In this document: positions 3,601 through 63,212 of the stretch, one piece after another | Layout of the letters: every line of letters starts with the position of its first letter | Numbering within the stretch: the first letter of the stretch is position 1 | From: Sphyrna mokarran | Lineage: Eukaryota | Length of the DNA stretch: 64,000 bases | Assembly (NCBI GenBank): GCA_024679065.1 | Contig: JAGIQG010000011.1 | Location: forward strand, 71,300,001-71,364,000 | Direction: 5' to 3' | Translations under genes and position numbers: made by a program | Notes under the pieces: model-generated | Seen by the model: the letters and a program-made list of their open reading frames with translations, nothing else | Told to the model about the DNA's origin: nothing | The model's database searches: none

Positions 3601-4316
3601 CCATAAAGGAAACATCACAGTACACTGCTTTCACCAATGAATCAGTTTTTTCAGAAATTAGAATATGTGAATCCTGACCTGCAACCCTAGAAATACATCA
3701 TATGGAACACAAGCCTTATTTTCATTAACCCTTGCCTGATGAAACCACTTAAAGGGTAGCATAGCATATTCTTGGAAAACCTGATGGAAACGGATCCATC
3801 CATTTTGCGAACTGATTTAGTTCACCAACATTGCTTCTTGTTAAACTACTGGTTTAGGTCTGACTGCCACTGAATACAGAAGATAATGCTTTGCTAGATT
3901 GTCCTATCTGCTGCTCAGCTTTGTGGTATGAGCTGCAAAAGCAATACTGAAAGGACATTTGTGCTGCCTTGCAAAACTGAAGATTGACTGAGCAAATGAA
4001 AGACAAAACCGAATTTTCAATTTTTCAGCCTATCTTCGGTTGTCTAAGATAGAAGGTCTATAATACTATGTAATCATACTTGAAAATGTGTATGTTGAAG
4101 TTCCACATTGTTTTATGTTTGAAATGTTTATTTAATCAAATCATATGCTGTTACGGCTCTGCTCTTGTGGCTGAACTTACTGATATCCCATCATGGTTTT
4201 CTGAAACATACTCAATCTTATCAACTGTCCTTAGCCAATGGAGTTTATTTTTGACATTAAAATTAAGTCAGATGTAACTGTTATTCCTTGCATTCTCTAG
4301 GTGTCAGCTGGAATAA

Positions 4317-6070: not shown

Positions 6071-9000
6071 ATGTCTCCATATCAGAGGGTGATCTTTACC
6101 AATATAATGCTTAACTTTTTATATCGCTCAGTTGCAACGAATTAGTCATGCTATTTACAGTGAAGAGTAATGCAAATATTTTCATGAGAATGGATAGAAA
6201 TGATCAAAAAATGTAGTTAAGTTATACTAAGTAAATCTTCCCTAAAGCCACAGATATCATGAGCCACTTTTGAAATTTCTCACAGTTTCTGATCCTTTTC
6301 ACTATTTGACAAACATCTTTTAAAATGTAATGGCTCTCTCAAAATATATACACACCATCTTTGCTCTCACAAAAATAACATCTCCTAGGATGTAAAAATA
6401 AATAACCGCCACAAGAATACAATGTAGGAAACAATATGCTGGACCTTTTAAAATAGGAAGTGTACAATGCCAGGATGTCATAGACCAGTGATAAAGTGGT
6501 TGCTGTGTTTTTATTCTGTGTCCTCATATTTACTTTATTTGTTGAAAAAGTAACTATTTGTTGGTCCCATTGGGATATAACTTATCGGAATTTGGCACTT
6601 AAATTGGGAAACAGCTGTTCTCCAGCTAATGGCAGGTGTCCTATATTGGTGCAGTTTATGATTACCTAAACACTATTCATCTGCAATAATCTGTTTTCCT
6701 ATAACAAAACAGTTCATTTTTTGCAGCTAGTATTAACTATATGTTGAAATGGTCACAATGTGAACATACGCTTATCTGAAAACACCTTTTTTATCCTTGG
6801 CTATGCTACACGTGTACAGTGAGCATGCATTCTGTACAGTCACATGATTACCCCTGTAATGGAGAATAATAAGAAATCTGCTGTAGAACTGTTTTGTTTT
6901 CAATGTAAGGAATTTGCGGCACAGAAAAGAGAAAAAATTGTCAAGAATTAGCAACAAAAAATCCTAGGGTAACTCAATACTTCTGTTCTGTCACGTGATC
7001 CACTGTGATTCTGATACAGACAATTTATTCGACTCAAATGACAAAGTACGACGAGTGGGTTGAACCCCTCACTTTTATTTCAGTTTGATGACACTGGAAA
7101 TACATTCAATTTGGAAGCTTCTTCTGTCAGGAGCAATGATGCTTCAAACATTGTTATCAAGGTTTATATTTATTGTGAACCCTTCTCCCCACCCCACCCC
7201 CATCTCATTCAATGTGATCACATGACTAAATTGCAGGGCCAGCAGTGCTTGGTACCTTAAATCAAAGATTTTGCTTAATATGAGATAGTATAATATGGGG
7301 ATCGTAAATAATAACAATTACTACTAAATGCTGATGGAAAACCCATACAATTCAAGTCTTGACCTTTCATGTGTTATGTGAATTATTAACACACATGTAA
7401 TATAAATTGGTATTTCATGCTCTTCCTTACCATATCATTCCAAATCAAAAGAAACAGATGTAGGACTGAGTTCCTGCTCTTAACCTCGAACATATTGCTT
7501 GTACCACCAGAAGTTTCAATGAAATTAGATGCATCAAAACTTGTGATCACCTTTATTTCACAATTATTACATTGTTCCAAGTGACAGGCCCTCAAAAATG
7601 GATTAGATTTTGTCACCTTTGAGGGGCATGTCAATACAATATTGTTGTAACGAACGGGTGTATATCACTGATATATTAACTTTACATCTTTGGACCTGTT
7701 GGGTGTTTCTTTGTACATTAGCACAACCATATTGCCTGAAACTCATAATGCACTTTGCACATCAGTGTTCAATATTATTGTGCATATACCAAATAAACTA
7801 ATCTCACCTTTATTCTCTTATAAAGAGAATGTTGCATTCAAAAACAAAATTACAGCCATTAATACTACCCAAAATGTACTTTTTGCATCAATGCAAATGG
7901 ACAAATTTGGATTTTTTTGGGTGTTGGTTACCAAAAGAACATCAAATATGCATAATTGTTGAAAGTAAGTGAGTGCACCATTTCTAAACAGGAATAGTGT
8001 AATGTGCATGGAGATAGATTTTAACAACGTATCCATAATTTATTACAATTTTTCTTTCATGTTCATCTTAGTTTGCATAAAACTAATGAGTGAATAAATG
8101 TTATTCATCTTTAAAACATGCAATGATCAGCATGAAAATTCAAACTAAAGTCTAATCTTAACGAGACTGACTTTAAATTGTAAGCATAAAGATCATGAAG
8201 CATTTTAATTGAAGACAGAGCTGTGGATTTGATACACCAGCCAGGTATCATTCTGAGAGAGAAAATAAGTCTGTTGGAAAAGAAAGGACATTGGATAAAG
8301 CAAAGTTAATTTGAAAATGTGTAAAATGAGCTGCAATTTTGTGGAGATAGAATGGACAAATACTTATTCCACCATAGTGCTATTTTCATTAATGCGTATA
8401 ACATACCTGATATGTATAAAATGCAATCATATGTGCAATGTTGTTACAATGCACAGGCAAATAGAACTATTTGTGGGATTTTCTTTTTCCAATATGATTT
8501 CCGTTTACAATTTGATTCAAGTATTCAGTATTTAAAGTACTCTGAAAACCTAATGGCCAATATATTTTTATGTGCCTATAATAAGATGGGTAAGGATCTG
8601 GATTTATGTTATGGGTATACAAATACAGCAGCAATTGTACTTAGGACTTATAATTTATACAATACTCACTTAAAATGACATTGATATTCCAAATAAATTA
8701 CAATTTGTGGCAATGGTGAAGAGGATAGCATCTGATATAAAAAGAATAAACAATTCAGAAAACACAGAACCTAGAGAGGAGTCATTTAGAATGGGGTCGA
8801 GCTGTCCAGGGCCATCGAATGAATTCTTGTTGTATTATAAACATTGGTGTAATCAAGTAACAAAAGGTTGAAAGGTTGTAAATCAATTTAGATAGGTGAC
8901 CTTTGTTGCTCATGTTTCTGACCCGACTGATATGTCAACCATGGCAACCTTAAACAGATTTTGATGGAGCCAGTCACATACTTCATTTAAATTGCAGTTT

Positions 9001-16626: not shown

Positions 16627-16904
16627 ATAGAATCACTGAATTTACAGTGCCGTCAAGACTGCACTAACAACGATCTCACCCAAGTCCTATCCCCATAACC
16701 CCACACATTTACCCTGCTAATCCCACCAATACTAGGGGGCAATTCAGCATGGCCAGTCAACCTAGCCTGTGCATCTTTAGAGTGTGGGGAGAAACCCGAG
16801 CACCCAGAGGAAACCCATGCAGACAGGGACCCGAGGCTTGAATTAAATCTGGGTTCCTACCACTCTGAGGCAGGAGTGCTAATCATTGTGCCACTGTGCT
16901 ACCC
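16627..16904 (-). mobile_element. HE1-type V-SINE (internally deleted)
   Basis: Reverse complement has a tggcacaatgattagcact head, the gggtttcctctgggtgctcgggtttctcccca V-domain and a gattctat tail. Confidence 0.88.
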
Positions 16905-17984
16905 ATATTACAGGGAAAAATATGTAAAATTCAAATGATGGCACACAAAAACTAGCTTGTCCTTCTCCTTATATTTTCAAAGGGCAAAGGCTAACTTTAA
17001 ATATTTAGATGAGGATGGGTAATAAATGCTGGCCTAGCCAACGATGCCCATTGCCTATGAACAATATTTTTTAAATTCACCAAATTGATCTAAATTGGAT
17101 CAATACTGGATTATTAGTTCAGAACACATATTAAATAGAAATCCACTCAACTTCCTCCTCACAGTTTACTTGTAGTGCAGTTCCCTTGATCAATCCTTCT
17201 TTCATCTTCTCCTGTAATCCCATATCTATCCCAGTGCACTAATTTTCATTCCAGTAAGCTCATGGAGGGGAAGCGTTGGTATGACAATTTCAGCACTGAC
17301 ATGTATAGACAGTCATTTATCGTCCAATAAGTTTTCATTTATTTATTCGGTAGAGCATTTAAATATTAAAATAAAAGCCCTTTTCTGTGTCAGTGTTGAA
17401 TACATTTGTGTGAAGGAGAGAAGTTTCTGCTTTTGAAATAGTCATCTACATCCCTTGTTTCCTTTTCTTGTCTTGTTAAAGGTCACCTCCCCACCCTAAT
17501 TGTAGTTACAGGCAAATTAAAAGGTCAGTTACCATTAAAATTAATTTAGTTATTTTCCAACTAAACAAAGCTGCTGGTATTAATTCTTCTCCACCTGGAG
17601 CAATACTAATTATCCACCCTACCTTGGAGATGTTGTCATGAACTTACTCTGGATCATTTCCTCTTTCCAGTGAAGAGTTTTCAAAATGTATTTTTTCTTT
17701 CTCTTAATGCTTGACTATGATTTAGAGATAGTTTAGTTATAAGTGAATTTTGTCTATCTTAAGAAGTGATGCCAATCAATTTCTCCACACAGCCCAGAAA
17801 GAAAAATGGCTTTGTTAAAAAGCATTTTTTCTGGCATCAATGTCTTTGTTCCTCTGCAGACTAATTAAAAAATCCAAGATTTACGATATCTAATAACGAA
17901 GAATGTGAAGCTATCTTTCACAGTTTTGGTCAAATCCTCCATAGTCTTGTGCCATTTTGGGAGGAGGTTTGAATAAAAGAAATT

Positions 17985-21400: not shown

Positions 21401-23620
21401 ATTGAAGTGTGGTTTGAATTCATCTGGAACTTGTCAAACCTCATAGCAGTGCAGTGGTCCATTGCAGGGATCAGAAACAAAGGCAAAGAGGATGGGAAGG
21501 GAGGGCAGTGGGTTGGGGCATGTAATGAGCAGAGTGGAGATTGGGAACATAACCAAGGTTGCAGCCGATGCCTCAGGTGTGTGCCTAGGTGTATTAAGGC
21601 GCTTAAAAGGAAAGATGGTGTTCTGATTTAGAATAGGAAAATGTCTTTTGAGAATCAGCAAAGTTTGAACAGAGAAGTCTCTGCCCAGAACGCCACATGC
21701 TCATTTCATAAAATCTAAAAACCTGGCATCCTCACAGGCATCTGCCACTCGATCTAATGCCAGTCTATAGTATACTTAGAAACATCTGCTTCCCTGCACA
21801 AAAGGGACAGAGTGCGCTTGACAGGTCTGTGTTAGCAAGACGTGCTCTGCCAGTTTTTTTTTATGAAAAATTCTAATGCTTCCCGTCAAACCATTAGCAA
21901 TGATACAATCAGCACAGACCCATTAGAGCATCAGTATCCACCTGTGATAAAGAAAGCCATTTGTTTTCTTAAAGCTCACTTAATGTCCATTTAACTCAAT
22001 TTGTCAGGAAATGTGCTACAATTTCCTCCCAGCCTGCAATTTTGTAGTGTTGTTTTTTTTCCAAGTCGGAGGGACAGCAGAACATGAAGTCAGAAAGTGT
22101 CTGAAAGTCAGGGCTGCGCAAGGGCTGTGTGGGATTGTTGACATCTGCTGAGGTGGGAGAGATCAGTAAGCAGGAAATGGGGTGTCACTCCTCGTGGTAG
22201 TTTGCCATTATCTTGGCATTTCTAATGAAGTGTCTGCAGCACAGAGCCTCTGGATGGCATCTTAACGCACGGATAAGCAAAAGCACTTCTCCCCCTTGTC
22301 ACTGTCATCCATCTGCATGCACCCCTACTGCAGCCAATGGGATGGAACCGGGCTACTACATTCAGTAAGCCATTTAGACTTTATGCATCACATGATCGGT
22401 CACACCAAATATGAAGAAAAAAATTGTATTTTATCGGTCATTCTGTTGTAACACTGGCACCTAGAGCTTGATGTGCGGATGCTGGCCTCAGTCGTGCTTC
22501 AGCTAATGATTCTGAATAAATTCTATATTAAACCACTGACAGAGAGCTTCAGTAACTGCTGGCAAAAACACAAATTGACAACTAATTTTACAAAACATGA
22601 CTACCGTCTCATTTGTAGACAGAGTATTAAATTATTCAATTAATAATGCACCATAACAAAAAAGTACCTTAATATTCTGTTTGAATAATTTAATGTTCAA
22701 ATTTTTTTCTCTTTTTTTTAATTCTATTGTTGCGGTAAATCACAGTAAATAAAAATGATTAGCTAGGTGGCGCAGTTGACTCAGACCTGGAGAGAAATCC
22801 AGCCCAGGGTAAGTAAATGGAAGGCTGAGTTGTTGTTATCATTCACAAGTTGACAGGAGTTTGCCACATTGTAGTCAATCTGGATTCAGGGTCAGGTTCA
22901 GGTTCAATGTGCGACTGTTGGATTCCACGCAGACAAGTGACTATTATCTTGGTAAAATGGAAGACAGCAATGAGCAACTTAATGGATACATGCCATTACT
23001 TTTGTGGCATGTAACAGCATGTGCCCAGATGCTCATACATGGTGGCACAACAACCCCCTGCCAGCACCCAGCAATGATACTCCTCTGAGCTTATCTCTTC
23101 AAATGAATTCAAACTGATACTCAATCATCTTCAGCGCCCACTGGAACACTACTCCAGGATTGTGAGTGAAAGTTCCTAAGATTCAGTGTGAATTAACATG
23201 TTGTGGGCAAAACGCCAAAGCACAAATTAATTGAGAATTTCATAAGTTGTACTGTATACCAGGTTATGAATCTGATGAACTGGGTGAGACCAATCAGACC
23301 CTCAAAATAAATTTCAGTGAACACTCAATTAGCTCTCAATGGAACTAATGTGTGCCCAGAAATTACTGACTAATTCATGCCTTCTTCAATGTGTTCCTCC
23401 ATTGGTTTGGGAGTAAGACATGGCATGTTGGTGTACTTCAGACAAGGGCTTGTGAAATAGTAATGGTTACTAACCTCAACAAGTGAACAGAGGCGTGAGG
23501 TGACTCAGCTAATACCTCAACCATCTGGTGACGGCAGGGCTGGCTTAAATCTGATGTTCTGTGACATCTGTGCACTCACTTGATGAGGCAGGAGTTACAT
23601 AATCTGGCATCAAATAACAA

Positions 23621-23779
23621 AATGTTGGACTGGGGTGAACACAGTAAGAAGTCTCACAACACCAGGTTAAAGTCCAACAGGACTCACTTGATGAAGGAGC
23701 AGCACTCCGAAAGATAGCATTTTGTGCTACCAAGTAAACCTGTTAGACTTTAACCTGGTGTTGTGAGACTTCTTACTGT
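23621..23779. mobile_element. Fold-back Penelope-type element (family A) with hammerhead-like core and TSD
   Basis: 41-bp inverted arms at 23641-23681 and 23739-23779 with 1 mismatch; core ttgatga-a-ggag-cagca-ctcc-gaaa at 23688-23712; flanking direct repeat tcaaataacaa / tcaaagaacaa. Confidence 0.8.
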
Positions 23780-24331
23780 CAAAGAACAACACAGGATAGC
23801 AACAGGCCCTTCAGCTCATCAAGCCTATGCTGACATATGACACCTTTCCAAACTAAAGACCTTTTGCCTCTATGGATTCCATTTCCCTCTATTCCGTGAT
23901 CATTCATGTATCATCAAAAGAAATAGCCATACCAACCTTAACCATTCAATGTCTGCCTTATAACTCAACCTGCCCACTAATCTGGATGATTTGTATTTAT
24001 CTGGAGGAAACAAAGAAAAACAAAGCATGGAACCATCTTTAACAGCAATTTGTCCAAATTGTATTTCACACAATGGCACAGAACTGTCCCAAGCAGGCTT
24101 CTGAAAATGTGTAAGACAATGGGCATTGTCTGATCCTCCTCTTTTGCTGTTTTTCACCCTCTTGGTTATGAGTATTAAAGAGTTGAAAATTATTATTGGG
24201 AAAAGGCCACTCAGGCATAACAACAGCATTACATGTCTACATTGACATAGGGATAATCAGGGAGAACAGTATTTCAAATTGTCAGGAAAGGAAGTGTTAA
24301 TGCAAAATTGAAATACTATGACGTCTTCCCT

Positions 24332-24461
24332 GGGCAAGATTTTCCAGCCACGCTCAGATGAAAACTGGAAAATCCTGCCAGAAGTCAATGGACATTTGCA
24401 TGGTCCCTCCCCCACCACCTACTGTGATTCCGGTGATGGGCAGGTCAGGAAAATTCCTCCC
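24332..24461. mobile_element. About 125-bp MITE family copy
   Basis: TIRs gggcaagattttcc / ggaaaattcctccc; internal similarity to the 18285 and 30154 copies. Confidence 0.7.
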
Positions 24462-24764
24462 TCCCTTCCCTGATATATAATGGGCAAATGCAGACAAATT
24501 TGTGGTACTGTGGGATCTTTCACAATTGGAATATTACATCAATATAAGGTCTCAGTAGTTGGTGCTGTGGGACCTCAGACAAAGCAAGCTGACCAATTTC
24601 CACTATCTTCTGCTGCCCATTATATTATAGCATTGGAGGCAGAATTAAGTCCTTAACTGGTCATGAGTTGGACAGTTAAGGGCCTCAATAGGCTTCAAGT
24701 CATGTGGCTGGAAATACCACACTGTAATTTGAAGGACAGCTCAGGGATGGGTGGAAAGACACAT

Positions 24765-24852
24765 GCTGGAGTGTGGTGACTAGGGGATTTTCACAGTCAC
24801 TTCATTGCAATGTTAATGTAAGTTTACTTGTGACATTAATAAATTAACTTAC
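24765..24852 (+). mobile_element. Isolated 3' tail of the second V-SINE subtype
   Basis: gctggagtgtggtgactaggggattttcacagt.acttcattgca...acttgtgaca matches the tails at 38340-38430 and 63055-63140. Confidence 0.8.
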
Positions 24853-27514
24853 CTTAAAAAAAACTTAAGATCACATATTGCCTGCCACTGTGGAGCAGGC
24901 AGTGAATTCACACCCTATCCCACTACGGAGACACTTCCCAGCTAGTGGGTCTACATCAGGGAGCCGTATCGATATGTTACCTTACTACCTTACTGTCCCT
25001 CCCTTCTCATTCCTGTCATTTAGCAACGACTGGAATTCAGACCAAGCTGTTTCCAAATGTGCAAGGTCTGGATCTAGTAAAATACATTGTTTAAGTAATA
25101 TTTAAGCATAGACATTTTGTAGGCACACACTCTCTTCCTGTCACATACAGGGTTAATGCAGGCTTTTCCTTTCATAATGCAGCCCATCTCCAAGTCCTCT
25201 ATAATCATTTTTTACAAACACATTATTCTTGCAGTAATATACTGCCAACGTTTGCATTACTCTGCAACAATCATTCTGGTTATAATGTTCTACTAATACA
25301 AATGATTGCATGGAAACACCTCACATGTAATATCCAGAAAAGTTATTTTGTAATATGTAAATACAGGTCTATTAAATGAACTTTTCCAGTGCATCAGCAT
25401 AAAGGTTAACAGGCTGCATCCTTAAGCAAATATTAATGAGCGACGGTAGCTTATTGCTGTGACCTTGGTCAGTCATTTTGTCACCCAGTAGAATTTTACA
25501 CAATGTTGGTGTCATTTTCTTTTTTCATCAAGAAGACTTGTTCATCCAGTTGATTCTTCCTGTCAAAGCTGACTTCAGATTATAAAGTCACTAATGTGTT
25601 AAAGTCAGATTAACCCTTTTAGTCCCAAATGCCCTGGGAATAACATTCTGGATGGATTGAGCCTTGGCTCAGTGCCAGTAATCTCAGTGTGTGATTTAGG
25701 CTTCGTTCCAGACAAAACAGTACAGAGGCATGAGTTCCAAGCTCTGAATACTGGGTTGACAGCCATGGGATGCTTGGACAGAGATAGAGTTACATCCACC
25801 CCCACAACTATCGCCACATCAAACTACTTCCGCTGGTAAGATGCTGGTATTTGTCTAACAACCTGTCCATGTAATAAATGACCTTTGTTACGGAAATAAT
25901 CCAGAGCACGATCTGCTGGATGTTAAAGCTGTGCAAGAAACAATTTACCACATGTAGTCCTTGGTATGTAAAGACAAGGAGAGTACTTTATTTGATTTCA
26001 CCTGGTCTAATTGAATATGTTTTCCAAGGGCCAGTTAATCTCGCATTCTACCAGATTAATGACAGCAATACCTGCTTAAGAAGAGGATGCCATTTTTTGT
26101 TATTTGTTGTTGCAAATGCTGACATTGTTCAGTATTGCTCTCCTGGAGGTTGACTGCAGAAATCACATAAATAATCATTTCTTACAACTGGGAAAATAGC
26201 TTGGCAACAATCGTGTTCAGTGGTGGTAACCAAGTTATTATTATTTCCAGTTGTTAGCAGTCAACTTTTGGAATTGAAATTATATCAAAGGAAATACCAT
26301 GAAATCCAGATTGTAAATCAGATTTGTTTATGAACCATAGCCCTGCTTTTAGAATTGTCATTTTGATTCCAAAAAATTAACCAATACTGTGTGTGTATGT
26401 CATATAAGCATAGACAATTTAATCAGAATAAGACCATTTGGAAGTGGGATGGTGAAAAACATAACTCATAATGAATGAAATTCAGCAAAGATATCATGAG
26501 CTGTGTAGTATTCGAGGGTCTGACACATAAAGGGTTAAGGTGGGATAGTACCACCCATACTGTGATGTAAAAGAACACATGATCCTCATCTGATGTCAAT
26601 GTAATGCTGGACAGAGCTTGGTGTAGAAGCAAGCATGGAGATAGCACCTAGCTCAGAACTCTACTATACTTATGTGTATAGTTTCTAATCGCTAATAAGT
26701 ATTTACTGTCAAATTATCAAAGACTACAATTACCTTAATAAGACCAACCAAAATACACTTGTACCTTCCAACATGGTGGCAGTGAATGGAACAGTTTAAA
26801 ACTTCGCAGGGATGACAGAAGAAAATTAAAATCTAGGAAACTGAAGGACAAATCAAAAAAGCATTCTAATCTGAAGAAAAGCTCAAGAAGCGAAGGTGAA
26901 AAAGGAAATCACCACTGAAAAGCACCAAAGAAAGGATTGGTTGCTAAAGCAGAAATTAAATTCCACACTTCAAAGGAAGACTCTACTAAATCTCATGGAA
27001 GTCCAGCTTCAATACCCAAAGTGTGCAGAGTAAACAGAACTAGCAACGATGAGTTAAAATTTTAAAATTGCTGGACAGCAAAATCCTTGAAAAGGGATAA
27101 TAACTTCAGTGGTCAGAAATTGCTGTTTAAATCGCAGTCCAAAAAACTCGATTCCCAAGCTCACTCTGAAGGAAGAGGAAAAGTATTCATTCCTTAAAAA
27201 TTAATTGCAATGAAGTAGGCAACTTGAAAAACCCAACAAAGGCAAGAGTTTGATGCTTTCATCAAAGCATCAAGAAATTCCATGGGAAATTAAATTACAA
27301 TGTTCAATAAACATAGAGGCTGAGAGCTGAAGAAGCATTTCTTCAGCTCTCAGCTGAAACCTTTGGTTTTTGGAAGTCTCTTAAAGCAGAATCTGCAATT
27401 TACAAATCAGAAATCCACACTTCTAGAACAAGGCCTAAAATTTGAGATACATGATTGCTTCAGATCTGGATAAAAAGCCTGGCTGAACAATTTAACATAC
27501 TACTTTATTCAGTA

Positions 27515-27715
27515 TATCTGGGATTGAGAATCTACTGATGATTGTCGGAGAAACCCATCTGGCTCATTTATGTCCTTTCGAGAAATCTGTTGACTATACC
27601 TGGTCTGGCCTACATGTGAGCTCAGAGCTACAGCAATGTGGTTGACTTTCAACTGCTCTCCAAGGGCAACAAGGGATGGACAATAAATGCTGGCATTTAT
27701 AAATAAAATTTAAAA
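27515..27715 (+). mobile_element. SINE 3' fragment inserted in the Gypsy gag
   Basis: aaacccatctggctcatttatgtccttt...cctggtctggcctacatgtga...caataaatgctggc is shared in reverse with 56553-56750 and 57975-58375. Confidence 0.75.
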
Positions 27716-27808
27716 AGGTTCAGCAGCCAAAAGGAGACAAAGAATCAAAGGATCATCTGAGAGATTTGATGAATTTTTAAAAGTCATTCAAGGCTTATTT
27801 TAACCTCA

Positions 27809-28019
27809 ATGCAGAGATGCCGGTGTTAGACTGGGGTAGGCACAGGAAGTAGTCTCACAACGCCAGGTTAAATTTCAACGGGTTTATTTGGTAGCACAAG
27901 TCACAAGCTTTCAGAGCGCTGCCCTTTCAGCAAGTGAGTCTCACCTGATGAAGGAACAGTGCTCTGAAAGCTTGTGCTATCAAATAAACCTGTTGGACTT
28001 TAACCTGGTGTTATGAGAC
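27809..28019. mobile_element. Fold-back Penelope-type element (family A) with hammerhead-like core and TSD
   Basis: About 80-bp imperfect inverted arms at 27851-27938 and 27940-28020; core ctgatga-a-ggaa-cagtg-ctct-gaaa-gctt at 27945-27973; TSD tattttaacctca (27796-27808) / tattttaatctca (28020-28032). Confidence 0.85.
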
Positions 28020-30153
28020 TATTTTAATCTCAGAAGCAACTAAATCCTTGAAAGGAATAAATTTAATAAAAGCATCCAATAGCCAACAGAACGTGTCACA
28101 CCCTTGATTAATAAGCTGTACAGAATGGCATCAGGCTGCAATTATGCTGACTTGCAATCTGAGCTAACCAGAAATAGTTGTAGGAGTGGTGGATGATGTA
28201 CTTTCAGACATGCTTCAATGGAAGTAAGATCTAACCCTTGAGAAAGCCACCCAGATTGTCGGGTAATCTGAAATCCATTTGAAGCACATAAGGGGACGGA
28301 AGCAAACCACAACAATGAGTAAACTCCGCTGTCCAACTAGTGAAACAGTACCAAAATAGAATTGGTTGCATCAATCGTTTCTTTCTCTGGATTTAGAGAC
28401 GGCAGATTGTCTAATGTACAAGCTGATGCCATTGGCCCATTGGAATCATCAATAAACATAGAAGCTAAGAGCTGTTGTGACCCCAAAGTCACTGGCAGTT
28501 CTTTGTGTGGATAGGTTCGCCTGCAGGTCATTGCAACACACAACACAACTTAGTCGCACTTTCCCCAATGTATCAGAGCTTTCACGAGCATCGTTGTTCT
28601 CAGATGATTGTAATTTTGTGTATTTCCGTCTTTTAACAAAGATTTAAAAACAGTGACAGATGGTGCACACCAACTCTTGTGCCCCTTTACTGACTTTATA
28701 TTTGCTTCATCCCTCAAAGAGCACTGGGAGAGGGGGGAGTCCCCAGTGAAACCTTTTGTCGTTTCTGAAAATTGTGCAACTTTGAATATAGCTCTGTCAA
28801 TGAATTCCCAAACACAGCTCAATCCCTTGTAGACCTGCACATCTATTTTACACAGGAGTGTATATGAATTGTGTTAGGCATAAATATACGTTAGGAAATT
28901 GTACGGACATTTATTGGCAGAACAGCAATATGTTTTCTTGGAGTTCTCACCTCCACCCATCATATACTCCACTCCAAATTCATGGAATGTTCTTAACAGA
29001 CTGCTGTGTGATATTACTAACTTCCACCCCTTTTCCTGTTTCAGCTGTGTTCACATTTTATCTAAAATGAGAAAACTAGGCTAAAGAATTTCTGATAAGC
29101 GTTGATCTGAATTTGTAATCTAAAATAACCTGAACAATTTGATTATATCTGCATTTGACTTGAGTTCAACAAGTTCACCTTTTAAAAAGGAACATTCTCA
29201 GAAAAATATGAAAACAGCTGAAATGAACTTCCGTGCATTTATATTGCTGTTTCTCATATCCCTTCAGTAGGATCTTGTCTTCATACAGGACATTGTCTGT
29301 TGTTATAACTCAAGCCATCCTTCAATTTTTTTTTAAAGGAAAGAATGTTGTTTTGGACGCAGCAGATCAGGAGAAGTCTATAGTATTGCAAATTACTGGG
29401 AAAGTCTGATGTTCGTCAGTCTAATATGACTTTTTTTTTAATTGTGATTCTTCCAGGAGATGCAATGGTTGGTGTCTGGTTTGTTTAATACTGCAGGATA
29501 TGTCGGAATCTTGATTTGAGCTCCCCATGTCCAATTAGAATGAAGTGTGTGGCATGTTGAATCATTAGCTGTGTGGCATTCAATAAAGCTGCCCATGCCA
29601 TTTTTAACTCACACAGTCTAGGCAGCCTGTGATACCCTTATATCCATCTCCCCACCATACTACCACCACCACCATAAAATTCTCCTTAAAATTCTAAAGT
29701 GGTAATTTAAATACTTTCATTCAGACTCCAAGCACATTTTATTCAGCAAATATCGATTAGCCCCCTTGTATTAACCTCACAACAGATACCCACTGTCAGA
29801 AAACAGTTGACCAAGAGGAACCCAGTGAGTTTTTTTTAACAGGATTCCCTGATTTCTGCTTATGCTTCCTCTGCCTCAGGCTTCCTATTACTGTGTGGGC
29901 CCAGGGCTGCAACTTCCTCCTGCATTCAATCCATTCCCAGCCATTAGCTTGGTGTCATTGACATCAAGTTCAAATGGGAGTGAGGCCTGGCCTATGAGAA
30001 TTAAAGCATCCAGATCTCATGTACAGTGAATCAGCATGTGTTTGAGGATTGGAATTCATCCTGAGTTAAAATTCTAAACCTTAGTTTAGAACTAAGGTTC
30101 TAAACTCTGACGCTGTAGTGATACTGTAAGTATCTATCCCAAAGCATTCTGTT

Positions 30154-30329: not shown

Positions 30330-30638
30330 GAATCATAGAATCATTGAATCCCAGAATCCCTATAGTGCAGAAGGAGGCTATTCGGCCCATCAAGTCTGCA
30401 CCAAACACAATCCCATCCAGCTCCTATCCCTTATCCCTTATCATCATAATTGTCCCGTGACACTAAGTGGTAGCTCAGCATGGCCAATCTTTGGACTGTG
30501 GAAGGAAACTCGAGCACCTGGAAGAAACCCATGCAAACATGAGGACAATGTGTAAATCTATATGGACAGTGACCCAAGGCAGGAATCGAACCCAGATTCC
30601 TGGCACTGTGAGGCAATAGTGCTAACCAGTGTGCCACT
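30330..30638 (-). mobile_element. HE1-type V-SINE
   Basis: Reverse complement has A box tggcacactggttagcact, B box ggttcgattcc, the V-domain and a gattctatgattc tail. Confidence 0.9.
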
Positions 30639-30704
30639 CTGTAGGAAATGCAATCATTTAATTTGACATTTTAGTAATGACTGTTTGGTAGAAGAGAACA
30701 TGAG

Positions 30705-33134: not shown

Positions 33135-36056
33135 ACAAAAAAGTACTCCTTGAAAGCACATGGACTATTCTTTTTACATAAGGATCACTATATGAACATT
33201 GGATGGTATAAAGTCAAGCAGATCAAGGAGATGCTAAGTTCCTTTTTAATTGCCTGAGTCCAGTCAGCATTGTATTGACCAGCAGATGCCTATGTTTGAT
33301 GAGGACTGGAAAAAGTTTGCTTGCTATGGCTAACAGACCGTCTAGATACAGAGGCGAAAGAAAGAAAAATACCAGAAAGTCACAATTAAACAAGGAGACA
33401 TATTCCAGCAGAACTCACCACTTATGCAAAGGTTAGGGAAAACAATTTGAGGTAATGTTGGACAAGTAATACATGCATAAGCATGTGTACAGAGTCACAA
33501 TCAGCTGAGCTCAATGTGGGATTGTTAGTTCAGCATCATGGGCTAAAAGATTGCATTTGTTTTAGTTGCTATACAGGGCTGGCTGCATTTGACCTAATGT
33601 TTTCTAGAATAAAGCTTATCAAATAAAAAAAAACATCACAAATACAAGCACATGGGCATTATATCTCATCTTTGAAAAATTGCATCCATTTGTATTACTT
33701 AACAGATATAATGAAATAGTTCTCCAGTTAAAATAAACAAAAAATACGATTTAAAAAAATTCCAGTAAACTGCTTGGAGTACAAGGTGTTAGCCATAGTC
33801 CAGTTGCAGAATCAGAGGTTATTTTGTGTAACCTCAGGTACTGGATGCCATATAACTTCCAAACTTGATTTTTCATACTTCAGGCCAGTCTCTCTGAAGA
33901 TGATCAATGTGTCCAGGAATTAACAATAGTCTACTTACCAGTTAAGTTGAGTCCATGAGACAATTTGGAAATTTTACAGCAGATCTCCCATAGCATTGCT
34001 CGTAGTAAGACGCAAAGTCTGTCATTTCAAAAAAAAAATTCATCAAGTAATGGACTAGCCTGTTGCAAATTTGGAACTAGAAATAATTTGGACTACTATT
34101 TTAAGATCACAAGGTTCGATTAGGCACATTGCAAGGTTAATTAAAAACAAATGGTTGGCTCATAAACTTATCAAAAATGTGACAGAAATTTTGCACGAGG
34201 TGACAAAATGTGACATTGCAACATGTTGGTATTTTTATAGTTTTTATACACTATAATGTGATCACTTTGAAATAAAGCTATTGGTTTGAACAGCATTAAT
34301 CCTTAGGAGCATCACATTTAACTTGTGCTCTGCGCAGTCACCTCATCTAAACCAATTTGAATAAGAAGATGCTGTGCGGTGGCTCCAAAGTCTCTCACAT
34401 GGAAGGACAAGGAACATTAGGGCATAGGATCACAACTGGTCAATCCTTTGTATCCTTTGGTAGATTACCCTGGGTTATTGGTTGTGAAGTAAGCTAAGTA
34501 CCCATCTTCTCAGCTGTAACAGTGTCATTCGAGGCAGTTAAACAAAGGGGTTAAATTACAGAGGGCAATAAGTTGACTGTTACTTGAAAGCTCTCCCATA
34601 AAAAGGAAAGCTTTAAAACTCCCACTGACCTGCCAATATCAGAGCAACATAACATCCTCACAATCACTTGTGTAACAGCTTTTGTGCACTCAGATTGAAA
34701 TAAATTTGGTAGATAACTACACTGCAAAGGAAACAGATATTTAAAATCCAAGAAATTAAAATATTATGGTATCCTTTCATGAATTAGAGTTTAGAGGAGG
34801 TTGTTAAAAACTGAAAAAAGCGGTATAATGTGTTGAAGGAAAGGATGTAGATTTGAACAGTGAAAGCTTCTTTCTTCTCATTCTGAAAAGGAAACCCAAA
34901 GTGCTCTCCTCTTTTAACACAATGTTCAGTGGTGACCTGCTGAGGTGACATCTTTAAAAATAATTGTCTACTTACCATTAGATGCAGTCGTAGAAAGTTT
35001 TACAGGAACCATGAAAATGGTCTCTGAAAAACTGGCCTCAGCAGGATTGTGTGAAAGAACAAAACAATGTGACTGGGTGATTTATAACAAAAAAAAGTAT
35101 ATAGTAAGTAGAATTTTCTACCTAGCTGCAAGCCATAATTCATACTGATCTCTTATCAAGATAAAGTACCTTTTCTCTGAATGATCTGTGTGGTTAAATG
35201 ATTTTGATAAATGCCAGTACATAACAGGTAGCTGCTTCACAAACAATCAAGATAAACTAGGCTTACTGGGAGACGAATGGTAAATTGCTTTCCTTGGTTA
35301 TGTTTAAAGCTCTACAATTTCCTTATCAATGGTATAGTCTGCTGACCTGAGGTGGAGTTGTTGTAAGATGAAAGAAACCTTGATTATTTATGCTCAAAAT
35401 GCAGTCGATTTTTTTGCAGTGAATAGCAGAATTTCAGCTGCACAAATGTTCCAAAATTACTACATTTACAGCATTTTGTAGGTTGCTGGAAGATATTAAG
35501 AGTACTTAACTACAATGGTCATTAGCATGGAAACTTTCAATTTTGCCAATGATACTAACACCAGTTTTATCCCAACTAAGCCCTTACATCAGGAAGGGGC
35601 CAACAGTGAAAGTGACATGAAATGTGTAGACTTGAGGCCAAGCCATTCCAGCAGATTCCCAATGTAATTTCACTGGAAATCCATTAAATTGGCTGACAAC
35701 TAGGCTGGAAGGCGGTTATGCCAGATCCCAGTCGAGTGCTGAAGTTTCCAAGATAGTTTTGTATGGGTAGATTGAATCACATCTGTCCTGTTCAAACTAC
35801 TAAGTAGCCTAATATTGGTGTAAAACAACTACTGAGAATATTTGTCATATGGCTCCTTTGATTTTGATGAGAAATGGATGAGAAAATAATGATTTAATGG
35901 GACAAAGGAATGAATCAAAAAGGAATAATCTAATTGAGGGGTTTAAAAGGCATCATGGTCTATTTCATCCTCATTCTCTTAGACACATCATTGACAAGTA
36001 TCTGTTCTAAATATACCAGATGATAAATGTTTGAGGGTTTTGGAGACAAAATTTTG

Positions 36057-36377
36057 CGTGGCGCTGTGGCACAGTGGTTAGCACTGCTGCATCACAGCAC
36101 CATTGACCCGGGTTCAATTCCCAGCTTGGGTCACTGTCTGTGTGAAGTTTGCATATTCTCCCTGTAACTGCAAGGGTTTCCTCCAGGTGCTCTGGTTTCC
36201 TCCCACAGTCCTAAAATATGTGGGTTAGGTGGATTGGTCATGCATAAATTGCTCTCGAGTGTCAGGGGACTGACAAGGGTAAATGCGTGGTGTTAGGGGA
36301 AAAGGCCTGAGTGGGATTATGGTTGGTGCAGACTTGATGAGCTGAATGGCGTCCTTCTGCACTGTATGATTCTATGA
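36057..36377 (+). mobile_element. HE1-type V-SINE, full length, CR1/HER1-type tail
   Basis: A box tggcacagtgg, B box ggttcaattcc, V-domain gggtttcctccaggtgctctggtttcctcccacagtcc, tail gaatggcgtccttctgcactgtatgattctatg. Confidence 0.93.
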
Positions 36378-37009
36378 AAATAATGGTTGTTGTAAGATGG
36401 GAACAGAGGGGTCTAGGATTGTCTGAGCACAATTTTGAAAAGATTTGAAGAGAAGGACATCGTGCACCATGTCTGACAGTATGTTGAAAGACTAGTTGGG
36501 TGACTAGGATTTTAAAGAGAATGGATTTGAAGGAGCAGAGATTGGGTCAAATCAACAAAATGAGCTCACAATGGAGATGAGAGGCTTGATGAAATAATTG
36601 AAGCTATTGGAAGTCAAGACAGGTATGTTTAAGTGAAAAAGAAATCAATAAGTTCCTTGCACATATTGTTATCCATTATTATCCATTAGTTCCTGTATTT
36701 TTTTTTGCATAATCACTTCCATAAACAAACCTAAGACATTATCAAGGAACCATTGCACCCCATTGACTCTAGTAGAAAGGTGCCTCTTAGTCAGGTATTT
36801 TCTTATTTGTATGCTATCATTTATTCGTCTCGTTGTTCTAGTGAACTAGGAATTCAATCACTTTCCTTCAGGTATCATGCCTTAAAAAGCTATTGCTGGC
36901 CAGGGATCTCCATGTCTTGGTTATGCTTGGCAAGGCACAGAAGTGCTTTCCAAACATCTTCAACAGGTTCTGGCTGACTGGGAGACTCTCCTGCTGTTAC
37001 CACCTGCAT

Positions 37010-37820: not shown

Positions 37821-38131
37821 AAAAGGTCACTCTCACCCTGGCAAGTGGCAGGGAAGGACAGGGGTCTGAAATACTTTGCACATGCTGAGGCAAACAGCAC
37901 TTTGGTTAAGTAGAGCATGGATGTCAGTAAGAAAGATTCAAAACAACTCTGGAAGAAAATCCCTATCAAAGTCTGCAAATCTCAGCTGCACATTTATCAG
38001 GGGATTTGTTGGGTTGCGTTGCACTTGAATATTTAGATTCAAATTGATGCTGGTGTACTATTTGGAGTAAATTTTCTGACCTCATCCACGGGAATCTTAT
38101 CGGATAGGACTGAAAATTTGGTGGATCATTT

Positions 38132-38430
38132 CGGCAGTACGGTGACACTGTGGTTAGCATTGCTGCCTCAAAGTGTCGGGACACAGGTTCAATTCCCAGC
38201 TTAGGACATTGTGTGTGCAGAATCATCACACTCTCCCTGTGTCTGCATGGGTTTCCTCTGGATGCTAGGATTCCCTCCCACAGTCCAAAAGATGTGCTGG
38301 TTATGTGCATTGGCCATGCTAAATTCTCCCTACCTACACAGGCACTGGAGTGCAGCAATTAGGGGATGTTCACAGTAATTTCATTGCATTGTTAATATAA
38401 ACCTACTTGCAACACTAATAAAAAAAACTT
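38132..38430 (+). mobile_element. V-SINE subtype with alternative 3' tail
   Basis: HE1-like head and V-domain, followed by caggcactggagtg...aggggatgttcacagtaatttcattgca...acactaataaa instead of the gattctat tail. Confidence 0.88.
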
Positions 38431-39316
38431 GTTGACCTCAGGCAGAAATTTCCAGTCTTGGAGCGCATGCAGCCAGGAAATCCCACCCTTCATGTAAATC
38501 CAGAAAAACTGCTCACATGCATGGGGTTGGGTCTTGGAACTGAGTGGCAGATGATTTTGGCAGACATATCTTGCAACTGGAGCAAAGAAATGTGGACACT
38601 TGCGCAATTCGATGGCTCAGCATAAAATTGGCATTGTCAGTTACACACAAATTTCCTCACCCAATGCTTCTGCAGTATAAATATGCCAAAAAGTTCCAGG
38701 AAATTCCAGGCTTATCACACAGATGTTTAAGACAAGAGTATCTGATTCTGTTATTTTAATAGCCACATGAACTAAGCAATTTAAGTTTTCAGGTTAAAAT
38801 CGTGGCAAGAGGAACTTAGTGCTGTTGTGTCAGGCCTATGTACAATATGTCTGCTGACAGTCATTTCTCTCTTACAGTTCTTTAAGACTCAGAGCTACAA
38901 CAAACAGGTTAACATCTTATGAAACCCCTGCATCTAATAAACAAATTAAACTGAATGATTCCTGTTCACCTTGATCTCAAAACCTCTGTCTTTTAGACTC
39001 ATCTCTCATATCGATGTGTTACAATAGACTTATTGTTTTAATTTTAAAGGCTGAGAAACATAGCTGCAGAAAACTCAGATGGTAATCTGGGTCATGCATG
39101 CCTTCCATCACTGTCATGAATGTCTGGTATTAAGTGAACAATTGTTTAGTTAAAAGAACTAGAAGTGCATTCTGTTTCGCTCTTATTGTAGTATCTTTAC
39201 TCAGCTGTCACTGCCGCGTATGTATCAGAATGCAATAAATGTGTCACAAGGGACCAGCTGAGGAGAGTTAACAGTATTCAACCAGTATTCTAACTGTGGA
39301 CATTTCTCTCCCACAG

Positions 39317-39754: not shown

Positions 39755-40500
39755 TCAAAAACTTGCATTTATATACTACCTTCAATGAATAAAGATATCC
39801 ATAAGTGTTTATAGGAAGTATAATGATGTGGAGATGCTAGCGTTGGACTGCGGTGGGCACAGTAAGAAGTCTCATAACACCAGGTTAAAGTCCAACAGGC
39901 ATATTTGGAATCATAAGCTATCAGAACGCTACTCCTTCATCAGATGAGTGTATGGGAAGTATAAAGCAGAATGAATACAAGGCAAGGGATGAATTATTAG
40001 GGGAAATGGTCAAAAAGATGCATTTTGAGGAGATTCTTAAAGAAAGACAACAAAGTGGACAGGCAGAAGGACTTAGGGAAGGAGCTTTAGAACATGTAAC
40101 CTTGGAAGCTGAATGCATGATTGTAACCAATGAAGCAAGTGAGGAGATGATGCACAAATAGCTGGCGTTAAGGCATCAGATAGTTTGGGTCATTGTTGTA
40201 TGATCAGAGAGTTAAAGAGATAGGAAGGGATGAGACAACAGTTGTATTCAAACAGAAGGATAAAGATTGTAAGTTTTAAGCATTGGAGAACTGTGCAAGT
40301 TATGCAGGCCATTGATAAAGGGATTGATGAACAAGAAGCTGTAGGATAGGATGCAATCAGATTAGTTTTGGATGAGCTGAAATTTAAGGTAGAGGAAAGA
40401 CGGTAGAGAATTAGAGTGATCGGTCCGGAGGAGACAAAGACATGAATCTGAGTATCAATGGCAAATACGATGTGGTGGAGAGTCAGACAGATAAGGGATT
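39755..40500 (-). mobile_element. Degenerate L2 LINE 3' portion, interrupted by a Penelope-type insertion
   Basis: L2-type tail aacttgcatttatatactaccttcaatg near 39760; collinear with 4317-4950. Confidence 0.7.
39824..39950 (-). mobile_element. Single-arm Penelope-type element (family A) with TSD
   Basis: Matches the left arm of the 23621 and 27809 elements. Minus-strand core is ctgatga-a-ggag-tagcg-ttct-gata-gctt. TSD tataggaagtataa (39810-39823) / tatgggaagtataa (39951-39964). Confidence 0.82.
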
Positions 40501-44272: not shown

Positions 44273-44289
44273 AGCCTCTCCATGAAGCA

Positions 44290-44487
44290 TGATGTAGAAA
44301 TGCTGATGTTGGATGGGAGTGGACAAGATAAGGGGCACATGACACCAGGCTATAAGTTTATTTCAAATCATAAGCTTCAAAATCACTTCAGGGAACTTCA
44401 CCTGGTGAAGAAGCAGTACCCCAAAAGCTTGTGATATCAAATAAACTTATTGGACTTTAACCTGGTGTCATGTGACCTCTCATCAGG
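44290..44487. mobile_element. Older fold-back Penelope-type element (family A)
   Basis: Inverted arms cacatgacaccagg...tttatttcaaatcataagctt / aagcttgtgatatcaaataaa...cctggtgtcatgtg; decayed core ctggtga-a-gaagcagtaccc-caaaagctt; short flanking repeat tgaagca. Confidence 0.7.
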
Positions 44488-45859
44488 TGAAGCAGGGTAG
44501 GAGTGTTTGGACCAGGGCAAATAGACATGAATAATTTCCTAGTTTCAGAGTATTATATTCTTGTCTTTACTTTTATATTATTATCATCAATTAATACATT
44601 GGAAACCTCTAATGCAAAAACAATCCATATTGTGGTTACACTGTCCAACCAGTGGTGGTGCTGTACCATCTCTACGGGAACCAGAGTACAATTCATGCGT
44701 GACAATTTTATGTAAGTATTTTCCATTCTACATGTCATCTTACTCCATTTTAATTCACAGGAAGCTTGAGCTGACCTGAATATTTCAATAAATTATAGAT
44801 AGCCATAGATGAAATAAGAGTATATTAGTAAATTGTTGCAATCCCCATTGAGCCAGATAGCTTTTAGAAAGATATATGAATCTGCAACAGTCTGAAAGAT
44901 CAGGCAATGAGATTTTAAGTTTTAAGACTTTTACTGTAATAAATAAACTAAAAGCAACTTTGTCTAAACATAATTCAACGGACAACTTGTGCGCCAAACT
45001 GAAGAAAACTTTCCCTATTTAACTTAAAATGATGGAAGATTCCCTCTCCTTGCTTATACTGTACTCCATCCCTTAAGTAGATTCTTCATTCTCCAGGAAC
45101 CAAGCTCAAATTATTCTCAGCTCTTGCTGGTTTGCTTCCTTTTTCATTTTTATCAGATGGATAACTTCTATTCTGTGAATCTTGATGAAGTTTACTCTAG
45201 CTGTCATTCTCTCTAGCCAAAACTAGGTGAATCTTCCAGCTTTGTGTAAATCCTCACAAACTGGGTCCCATCTAGCTGAGGGTGAGCTCTCACCTATGTT
45301 ATATGTGGTGAACTCTCTAAACTAGCTGCCTCTTCACACTATTCTGTCTCTTTCTTTCTCACTTTTAGGTCCCTGCAGACTGACCTGTATGTGAATCTCT
45401 TCAGAACAACTCTATAATCTGATACTGCAATGGTTGAAATGGATTCTTGCCCCCTCTAAGCCCGTCGTCATATTAAAAACAATCACGTGGGTCTTGTTTC
45501 CAAGCAGAAATTCTAATTAGCTATCCTCTAGATCCTCTACTTTATTCCATTTTGGAATGAAGTAGTCCAAAAAACTGCTTGCAAAACCTAACCTTTCTGA
45601 CACCTCCCTATGACTTAAAGATTAACTATCTGTCCTCTGTTGGCAACATTGTCATTGTTTACAATGTGAATATCTCTAATCTTCTGTCCAGTAAGGCAAT
45701 ATTGCCCCACACCCCATCTTTAACTTTTAACAACCAAACCATCCAAACTCGTTATCGAGCAAAATTCAGAACACGTCACATGAATCCCCCATTTCTCCAT
45801 TTTATCCTAAATTGAAGAGACAATCCCACAACATAACAATCTTGCAAACTTCATGGGGG

Positions 45860-51228: not shown

Positions 51229-51329
51229 AAAAGTGAGTGGCACAGCAGTTTGCACTGCTGTCTCACTTTAAAAATGACTGATTTTCTGAAGGGAACTTTA
51301 CCTAAACTCTTTTAAAATGTAATGTGAAA

Positions 51330-63140: not shown

Positions 63141-63212
63141 ACTTTCAAGTGACTAAAATGAAATTTTAAAAAAACAGTGTGAATGGTTTCTTCATTCAAA
63201 AACACAGCTGCT

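Follow-up and report, generated by a model that had tools for sequence, protein, structure and literature searches.

The four small hammerhead-bearing elements in the window (the whole 64,000-nucleotide stretch of Sphyrna mokarran DNA analysed here) are almost certainly stubs of a Penelope-like retrotransposon common in this genome, that is, truncated 3' ends made up of pseudo-LTR and tail. They show the described layout of a known retrotransposon class and are in that sense ordinary. The fold-backs among them are recurrent products of a coding element, newly made each time, with no separate lineage. The explanation as a whole, in which such stubs would arise by priming at two target nicks and by run-off of the copying enzyme, is one that we hold with high confidence, and its individual parts are graded below.

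Structure of the four elements

A profile search of the window returned six arms and no other family member; the decayed left arm of the fourth element, E4, was missed by the profile and detected by blastn and repeat search only. A first-pass annotation, made from the sequence letters alone, had described four related elements, three of them self-complementary, and both descriptions are confirmed. The cores match at 73–93%, and E1 (23621–23778), E2 (27809–28019) and E4 (about 44288–44482) are fold-backs of two opposed arms, none of them equalled in stability by any of 200 shuffles (z of −10.6, −14.5 and −4.0, respectively). E3 (39824–39950) is a single arm on the minus strand. A tblastn search with the Penelope ORF found no coding fragment of it in the window.

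The left arm of E1 (23621–23681, minus strand) represents a short stretch from the 3' part of the pseudo-LTR plus an incomplete tail (profile 823–884) in which profile alignment places no hammerhead core. The right arm of E1 (23682–23778, plus strand) starts at profile position A767, a hot spot for 5' ends, and stops untailed at the upstream of two 3' ends; its hammerhead is mutated (C3U, palindrome broken). In E2, the left arm (27809–27939, minus strand; profile 767–899) holds the hammerhead domain, with a broken core of the long-spacer form, and a full tail that stops at the ORF start position. The E2 right arm (27940–28019, plus strand) starts at profile C768, has the short-spacer form, is untailed and carries the sole intact core in the window (27942–27976, plus strand). 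The solo stub E3 (39824–39950, minus strand) begins at the hot spot (profile about 766) and extends to the tail end, its core broken by GAUA in place of GAAA. The E4 left arm (44288–44392, minus strand) has two internal deletions and a full tail including the ATG, and the right arm (44396–44482, plus strand) starts near profile 769, with a broken core and no tail. The copies had been judged to be mutated, and indeed only one of seven arms has an intact core. A common left end had also been proposed for all four; it is present in the other elements but incomplete in E1, where the outer ~15 nt are missing, and what was read as a left end corresponds, in reverse complement, to the 3' tail of the element and stops at the ORF start codon.

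Comparison of the flanks bears out the duplications of 11–14 bp reported at three of the elements, each with one mismatch: 11 bp at E1 (23610–23620 and 23779–23789), 13 bp at E2 (27796–27808 and 28020–28032) and 14 bp at E3 (39810–39823 and 39951–39964). Scores were judged against 300 mismatched-flank controls, none of which reached the 9 and 10 scored by E2 and E3; the E1 duplication, at 7, exceeds the 95th control percentile and falls short of the 99th. Flank scoring gave no clean duplication at E4.

A coding parent and a ladder of lengths

Upstream of the core, copies run into a broken GIY-YIG frame, and the same genome contains units of ~3.0 kb with the order pseudo-LTR, ORF, pseudo-LTR (L086, L087 and L088). 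The 814-aa frame of L086 matches RVT_1 (E 2e-7) and GIY-YIG (E 9e-5), a CX4CxxC linker is present in its translation, and the Atlas neighbours of the protein are HTH_animal, RVT_1 and GIY-YIG clusters at 0.98; a sequence search of the PDB with this protein gave 0 matches. These ~3 kb relatives with RT and GIY-YIG support the Penelope origin that had been claimed, and long copies continuous with a pseudo-LTR of this kind do exist. Judged by the CX4CxxC linker and the C-terminal GIY-YIG domain, which it shares with Nematis, the parent would be a Neptune-type Penelope-like element.

Direct repeats flank the ORF over 384 bp in L087 (97.7%) and 274 bp in L088 (96.4%). The arms of the window align with the pseudo-LTRs of the full-length copies, with the tail ending at the ATG of the ORF, and the old subfamily is linked to the full-length copies through coding sequence that is 81–83% identical as well as through the aligned pseudo-LTR. 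The window copies belong to an older subfamily than the full-length copies examined.

The genome was sampled in 120 evenly spaced 10-kb tiles (1.2 Mb), which yielded 97 uncensored arms with a 3' end. Twenty-four of these extend 100 nt or more above the hammerhead and 20 reach into the ORF; the same 3' end extends upstream through 3' UTR, GIY-YIG and RT as a ladder of lengths, and 5' truncation is frequent and variable in the elements of this genome. The 3' ends take two fixed positions, separated by about 35 nt, of which the outer coincides with the ORF start codon.

The hammerhead of the pseudo-LTR

In the E2 right arm, stem I (27942–27944 with 27974–27976) encloses CUGAUGA (27945–27951), a bulged A, stem II (27953–27965), GAAA (27966–27969) and an AGCU palindrome, with the cut predicted after 27973; the layout matches the minimal type described in the available text of PMC4209133. 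The annotation had given all elements a version of CUGAUGA-A-stem II-GAAA, which is intact in this arm, with GCUU directly after GAAA, but not in the other six of seven: the core pattern fails in E1, the left arm of E2, E3 and the right arm of E4, and the core of the E4 left arm carries a deletion. With an E cut-off of 1, the suggested scan of the window with Rfam models gave no hammerhead match, and two chance microRNA matches were returned instead.

Among 191 copies with the core pattern, the bulge is A in 187 and positions 15.2–16.2 are GC in 174. Stem I shows compensatory changes at pair 2 (A-U to G-C) and pair 3 (C-G to U-A or U-G), and so does stem II at pair 2 (G-C to A-U) and pair 3 (A-U to C-G). 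These changes represent few lineage events rather than many independent ones. Stem I is 85% paired and stem II 90%, whereas 1000 shuffles gave 76% and 70% and never equalled the observed pairing. By this covariation of stems I and II between subfamilies, the minimal hammerhead claimed for the elements gains support, and the hammerhead of the pseudo-LTR is real. The AAGCUU palindrome listed as an element feature, on the other hand, is mostly a CpG-decay product of AAGCUC, because copies unselected on the CG position within AAGCUC/AAGCUU vary there (TG 20, CA 13, CG 12, TA 3 and other 2 in 50 copies) and the young subfamily retains CG in 70 of 90 copies; the conserved palindrome is AGCU. Two-strand minimum-energy folds, which do not measure activity, did not give the active dimer.

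A pile-up of 5' ends at the front edge of the hammerhead

More than half of the arms at risk (38/70) end at profile 741–780, as against 16/86 and 4/32 in the flanking 40-nt bins (P 4e-6 and 7e-5). Alignment clipping was ruled out as the source by 1587 simulated uniform truncations, which produced no peak, and a splice boundary was rejected as well, in that the sense strand has no AG at the site and the donor-like sequence on the opposite strand would cut 5 nt further in. In the younger subfamily, which has other stem sequences, 25 of 61 arms stop no more than 19 nt above the matching base and 2 of the remaining 36 end in the next 20 nt upward. There the ends scatter over ~20 nt and show no step at the A767-equivalent base, at which 549 of 16,702 are non-C (3.3%). 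The short size class had been taken for a discrete unit; its 5' ends are indeed non-random, lying at the front edge of the hammerhead, but it has no lineage of its own.

Copying would run off at the 5' end of the RNA, just before the hammerhead. We regard it as an evenly balanced question whether the pile-up reflects such run-off on a transcript whose 5' end lies in the upstream pseudo-LTR, with the enzyme starting in this first pseudo-LTR. The old subfamily has a TATA-like run ~30 nt above an initiator-like CCACT, and an initiator-like sequence recurs at this position in the young one too. A serious competitor, which we nevertheless do not favour, is that the same Penelope stubs end at a structure or protein boundary, where reverse transcriptase would pause or jump or a 5'-to-3' nuclease would stop. 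In two subfamilies whose upstream sequences differ, the pile-up does coincide with the 5' edge of stem I, the TATA-like run is lost in the young subfamily, whose ends are scattered, and an upstream CTCAC complements a downstream GTGAG, with some jump junctions (L279, L303). Yet a stalled polymerase should be expected to halt on entering the helix, at its 3' side, and not past it; E3 and other solo stubs stop there although they have no partner arm; and the initiator-like sequence has persisted at the site.

G, counted by itself, precedes A767 in 810 of 8798 cases (9.2%) and is the commonest non-template base there (810/1699); inspected by eye, 26 of 30 loci with a G before A767 end there. A cap as the source of an extra G is at most a possibility: many of these bases trace to the partner arm or the target, and no G excess is seen in young copies.

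Fold-back pairs mostly join one tailed and one untailed arm

The sampled tiles contain 31 head-to-head pairs and 0 tail-to-tail, in agreement with the inverted pseudo-LTR layout proposed earlier; fold-back pairs would number ~55,000 per genome, extrapolated from 24 in 1.2 Mb. In 22 of the 24 pairs with both 3' ends present, one arm is tailed and the other untailed (binomial P 4e-5), in a sample whose arms overall are 45 tailed, 47 untailed and 5 between. Across all loci fetched, 76 of 93 pairs are tailed plus untailed, 6 are of one class and 11 are intermediate. Duplications reach a score of at least 9, at lengths of 9–16, in 14 of 60 insertions (sample plus window) and in 0/300 controls, which supports them as a mark of insertion, and they exceed all controls in 9/24 pairs against 3/32 solos (P 0.02). 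That only 9 of the 24 pairs do so goes with old copies and decayed flanks.

Junctions are varied, with 85 different coordinates among 93 pairs. Only two of the 27 fold-backs with both arms at the hot spot, E2 and L302, have a junction sequence in common, and these two differ in the 7-nt spacer. Many junctions are near-palindromic, the arms being truncated at separate points with extra letters between them. Paired arms agree in subfamily (of 93 pairs, 46 concordant, 1 discordant and 46 unclassified) and in spacer form (19 concordant, 2 discordant). The 2 of 21 classified pairs that differ in the 7-nt spacer, E2 among them, would fit two RNAs per fold-back; slippage in a short repeat accounts for them equally.

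In the mechanism that we propose, two staggered target nicks would each prime reverse transcription on the element's RNA, each using one of the two RNA start sites and so giving one tailed and one untailed arm. The two cDNAs would then be joined head to head, afresh at every landing. From the pattern of arms and junctions we think that this is probably what happens. According to the available text of PMC11167929, a Penelope enzyme acts on both strands, which it nicks and extends, and its two internal start sites delimit the tail. The inversion of these Penelope stubs might instead arise by self-priming or template switching on one cDNA or antisense RNA, which we consider unlikely. Antisense-template self-priming has been put forward for palindromic head-to-head junctions (PMC3846280, in the text available), near-palindromic junctions are common here, and arms of the same subfamily fit a single template. 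Concordant arms are also expected, however, where both nicks draw on a single RNA or on a single active subfamily, and self-priming alone leaves without explanation the joining of tailed to untailed arms, the separate truncation points and the letters added between the arms.

The stubs would in all likelihood be dead on arrival, because they are without the promoter side and the ORF-start RNA; the related Anolis enzyme requires ORF-start RNA downstream of its start sites (PMC11167929, available text). More tentatively, and with considerable doubt on our part, the stubs may be a genome-wide insertion record in which a two-enzyme complex primes both nicked strands, using a different RNA start site for each, linear RNA gives a fixed strong-stop cDNA that terminates at the RNA's 5' end, and tandem RNA, or circular RNA made by the hammerhead, is the source of long or more-than-unit copies. 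If true, this would bring the role of the hammerhead, the tail on one side only and the inverted pseudo-LTR under one explanation.

No support for a retrozyme-like family

It had been suggested that the fold-backs are a non-coding, non-autonomous retrozyme-like family of tiny units, transcribed, self-cleaved, circularised and reinserted as such. An arm class of about 100–135 nt is strongly over-represented, the hammerhead stems are kept across subfamilies, one junction is common to E2 and L302, and non-autonomous Penelope derivatives are described in the available parts of bioRxiv 10.64898/2026.07.22.740005 and PMC8557442. Even so, we find the suggestion very improbable. It is unsupported because of the length ladder, the nearly all-different junctions (25 of the 27 hot-spot pairs have their own) and the lack of tandem arrays: the 1.2 Mb sample holds no head-to-tail hammerhead array, and its 3 same-strand neighbours are all 152–286 nt apart. 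The ladder through GIY-YIG and RT is 5' truncation from a long element, which had been named at the outset as the pattern that would speak against a discrete unit. In addition, a fold-back carries its two hammerheads on opposite strands, the predicted fold of E2 buries the core inside a long hairpin, and no accumulation of 5' ends is seen at the cut site. A joint described as 'goes back 3020' in RNA contigs was considered as a circle and discarded, since it is what the reference used would give where the ORF meets the 3' pseudo-LTR.

That the hammerhead cut site itself makes the copies' 5' ends is scarcely credible for this genome and was rejected, for although core and stems are conserved, only 6 of 80 arms at risk end around it (profile 795–808), which is the background level, a purine precedes it in just 198 of 4788 exact matches (4.1%, as against 9.2% for G by itself before A767, and with a match pattern that also takes the long-spacer variant, where the position differs from the cut site), and cleavage is dispensable in vitro (PMC11167929, available text).

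Relation to known elements

The insertion mechanism of Penelope-like elements is called undefined in the available text of PMC8557442. The value of the stubs is statistical: because tiny insertions number in the tens of thousands, they define positions that are exact and open to testing, namely two RT start sites, a rule of one arm of each kind, a 5' stop zone and no stop at the cut site. These positions predict an RNA start and the products expected of an in vitro reaction. For annotation, such hairpins should not be labelled microRNA precursors, MITEs or retrozymes. In the open literature we found no account of twin priming, strong-stop or solo pseudo-LTR starts for Penelope, and Repbase or Dfam may hold the family; the one-of-each pairing and the front-edge pile-up suggest a step beyond the published accounts found.

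The comparisons that follow refer to the available portions of the cited papers. Pen2a_Av of Adineta (PMC3846280) and the scheme in PMC8557442 have the same head-to-head inverted, 5'-truncated copy with a short target duplication. Pen2a_Av and EN+ Penelope-like elements also have the same 30–40 bp tail at one end only, the same TATA-like and initiator-like pseudo-LTR sequence, and long copies with direct pseudo-LTRs. They differ in that the inverted pairs here are often just two arms of ~100–135 nt and that the tail here ends at the start codon, whereas theirs ends inside the ORF. The Neptune clade (PMC8557442) has the same single ORF of RT followed by GIY-YIG, with a CX2-5CxxC linker (here CX4CxxC), and, as here, a hammerhead in the pseudo-LTR. 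Microsatellite targeting was not seen in the insertion flanks examined.

Metazoan Penelope hammerheads (PMC4209133) share the short stem I, the bulged base before stem II, G10.1-C11.1, the palindromic 15.2-16.2 and the absence of stem III, but stem II is 4–5 bp here and 7–8 bp in the Schistosoma family; the motifs in that paper are, as here, mostly single ones on truncated elements, with opposite-strand pairs 100–700 bp apart noted. The Anolis Poseidon element PAc, studied in vitro (PMC11167929), has the same two internal starts bounding the tail with the hammerhead upstream, and likewise shows no sign of ends at the cut site. It belongs to another clade, however, and its start sites lie inside the ORF, unlike those here; inverted pairs and clustering of 5' ends are not addressed in the portion available. 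Metazoan non-LTR retrozymes (PMC7229834; bioRxiv 10.64898/2026.07.22.740005) have the same type I hammerhead, small size and relation to Penelope pseudo-LTRs. They are built of tandem units joined head to tail, each with its own hammerhead, and give circular RNAs, whereas the elements of this window are head-to-head or solo and are continuous with their coding parent.

The window elements and their parent

The four related elements lie where the first-pass annotation placed them, at 23621-23778 (E1), 27809-28019 (E2), 39824-39950 on the minus strand (E3) and about 44288-44482 (E4), and their cores are 73-93% alike. The fold-back structure claimed for them is far above chance in E1, E2 and E4 (z -10.6, -14.5 and -4.0), while E3 is a lone arm, a single copy of the element 3′ end. 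Flanking duplications of 11 bp (E1), 13 bp (E2) and 14 bp (E3) were likewise recovered, with one mismatch in each. The common left end holds for the elements overall but not for E1, which lacks the outer ~15 nt. When the window arms were aligned with the pseudo-LTRs of longer units, this "left end" proved to be the reverse complement of the element 3′ tail, which terminates at the ORF ATG.

These longer units, ~3.0 kb and flanked by direct pseudo-LTRs, are found in younger relatives. Among the best 30 matches to the E2 core in the 2.77 Gb genome, the downstream end is fixed and the upstream reach varies, with three extending 720-780 nt upstream into a broken GIY-YIG frame. Two further search steps led to a young subfamily whose copies are 95-98% identical to each other and show 81-83% identity in coding sequence to the old subfamily, that of the window copies. 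The 814-aa frame of the young locus L086 contains RVT_1 and GIY-YIG domains and a CX4CxxC linker, a type that marks Neptune and Nematis in the account of PMC8557442. The near-intact frames of L086-L088, together with more than 16,000 exact genome-wide matches to a 17-nt motif, are a sign that the young subfamily was recently active. Four metatranscriptome runs (X2-X5) contained 24-42% of sampled words from the young element's 3′ part.

Two smaller features adjoin the window elements. A 21-nt segment at 23574-23594, 108 bp upstream of the E1 right arm, is 86% identical to the start of that arm and carries the same C-to-T core change; it is either a local copy or an additional tiny stub. Immediately after E4, a 13-nt inverted copy of the hammerhead start lies at 44480-44492, and the E4 flanks look duplication-like with a few additional bases; E4 may include a third piece. 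An ORF search of the window gave no convincing gene ORF, and other high-copy repeats lie at 16646-16917, 24759-24866, 30331-30642, 36051-36386, 38122-38432, 50900-51232, 55354-55674, 59571-61026 and 62873-63496.

Arm pairing across the genome

A profile made from 18 old copies was searched against 120 tiles of 10 kb, taken at even intervals along six large contigs, yielding 113 matches, 98 of them with a 3′ end (97 once one tile-edge case was removed). The 3′ ends of these 97 fall in two groups ~35 nt apart, 47 untailed and 45 tailed, with five in between. Their 5′ ends are spread as a ladder: 24 arms extend at least 100 nt above the hammerhead and 20 enter the ORF. Pairs in the tiles are oriented head-to-head in 31 cases and tail-to-tail in none, and a tailed arm is joined to an untailed one in 22 of the 24 pairs having both 3′ ends (P 4e-5). 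Across all fetched loci, a biased set of 93 pairs, 76 are one-of-each, 11 have an intermediate end and six are of the same class. Duplications scoring above all 300 controls flank 9 of 24 pairs vs 3 of 32 single arms. Scaling from the 24 counts gives a rough figure of 55,000 pairs genome-wide. In four fetched loci (L347, L303, L313 and L297), apparent single arms have a second arm, just 20-40 nt long, lying between duplication and main arm. The profile search does not pick up arms this short, so the fold-back counts are too low.

The proposal that the elements are a non-coding, retrozyme-like family finds no support: junctions are nearly all distinct (85 of 93 pairs) and the 1.2 Mb sampled held none of the head-to-tail arrays, with one hammerhead per unit, described for metazoan retrozymes (PMC7229834; bioRxiv 10.64898/2026.07.22.740005). 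Of the pairs whose arms both end at the 5′ hot spot, 27 in all, only E2 and the fetched locus L302 have a junction in common, and these two are unlike in spacer form. A fold-back has its two hammerheads on opposite strands. The E2 hammerhead core is buried in the predicted fold.

The 5′ hot spot

Seventy arms still reach profile position 780, and 38 of them stop between 741 and 780; for the adjacent 40-nt bins the proportions are 16 of 86 and 4 of 32. When 23 long copies were truncated uniformly in simulation (1587 constructs), the distribution was flat, with no peak. In genome-wide exact matches, A767, the hot-spot base, is preceded by C 7099 times, by G 810 times and by A or T 889 times. On visual inspection, the copy stops exactly at this point in 26 of 30 loci with G and in 22 of 30 lacking A767, but in none of 30 with C; four pairs within the C set are either duplicate entries or the two arms of a single locus. 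At the predicted cut site, neither 5′ ends (6 of 80 at profile 795-808) nor a preceding purine (198 of 4788 matches) are in excess.

For the young subfamily, the count covered 61 motif occurrences in the first 6.9 Mb of one contig; it leaves out ends below the motif, and three stretches were dropped from it as duplicates of another's context. Of these occurrences, 25 end at most 19 nt above the base matching A767. Two of the other 36 stop within the following 20 nt, and 20 of the 61 extend beyond the 350 nt fetched. This peak is broad, with no step at the base matching A767 (549 of 16,702 non-C).

At L248/L249 and L272/L273, two copies are joined head-to-tail, in L248 as a hot-spot stub and then a longer copy; these joints are partial tandems of the kind that create pseudo-LTRs.

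A proposed route of insertion

As reported in PMC11167929, the Anolis Penelope enzyme, a predicted dimer, nicks and extends both target strands, begins copying at two internal RNA sites bounding the tail and requires ORF-start RNA downstream of these sites, while hammerhead cleavage is dispensable in vitro. Here, two nicks 9-16 bp apart would each prime from one RNA start site and the two cDNAs would join head to head, which would account for the hairpin, a tail on one side and the target duplication. It is probable that both nicks prime in this way, one start site each; self-priming in place of the twin nicks is unlikely.

The usual stub size may be set by the RNA itself. An enzyme starting in the transcript's first pseudo-LTR would run out of template at the RNA 5′ end once ~100 or ~135 nt had been copied, leaving stubs of a common size. 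Transcription of the Drosophila element begins within its own pseudo-LTR (PMC2377424), and pseudo-LTRs with TATA and initiator motifs are known (PMC3846280, PMC8557442). Against run-off, the young subfamily has neither the TATA-like run nor a sharp step, and no cap G is established. We regard run-off as evenly balanced between right and wrong, and a structure or protein boundary as a serious rival source of the pile-up, at somewhat under an even chance. Under run-off, E3 would represent one stub with its tail, E2 and E4 a pair of stubs each, and E1 one stub joined to an arm of shorter length.

The element layout, hammerhead and clade have already been described, the layout with its inverted pseudo-LTR, one-sided tail and 8-10 bp duplications in PMC3846280 and PMC8557442. 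Because a literature search turned up no account of twin priming, of strong-stop or of solo pseudo-LTR starts in Penelope elements, two counts may be unpublished: the one-of-each arms, and a pile-up at the hammerhead's front edge that has no counterpart at the cut site. The elements are real and their mechanistic value is modest.

The hammerhead

A hammerhead had been ascribed to all copies; its core is intact in the E2 right arm and in no other window arm, and an Rfam scan of the window returned no matching model. The predicted motif fits the minimal Penelope hammerhead described in PMC4209133. The AAGCUU palindrome also noted is mostly a CpG decay product of AAGCUC: 50 copies read TG (20), CA (13), CG (12), TA (3) or other (2) at the CG position, and 70 of 90 young copies retain CG. 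Among 191 copies keeping the core pattern, the bulged A is conserved in 187 and an AGCU palindrome in 174. Across 145 distinct motifs, stems I and II are paired at 85% and 90%, vs 76% and 70% in 1000 shuffles. Both stems show compensating pair changes between the old and young subfamilies, and these are few lineage events.

A young branch (L088, at locus positions 3487-3760 and 6512-6785, and L361-L380) has a CUGAGGA core; of the 90 young motifs, 30 have G at N7. In L088 stem I is weakened, yet the CUGAGGA branch is abundant; hammerhead quality may not limit spread.
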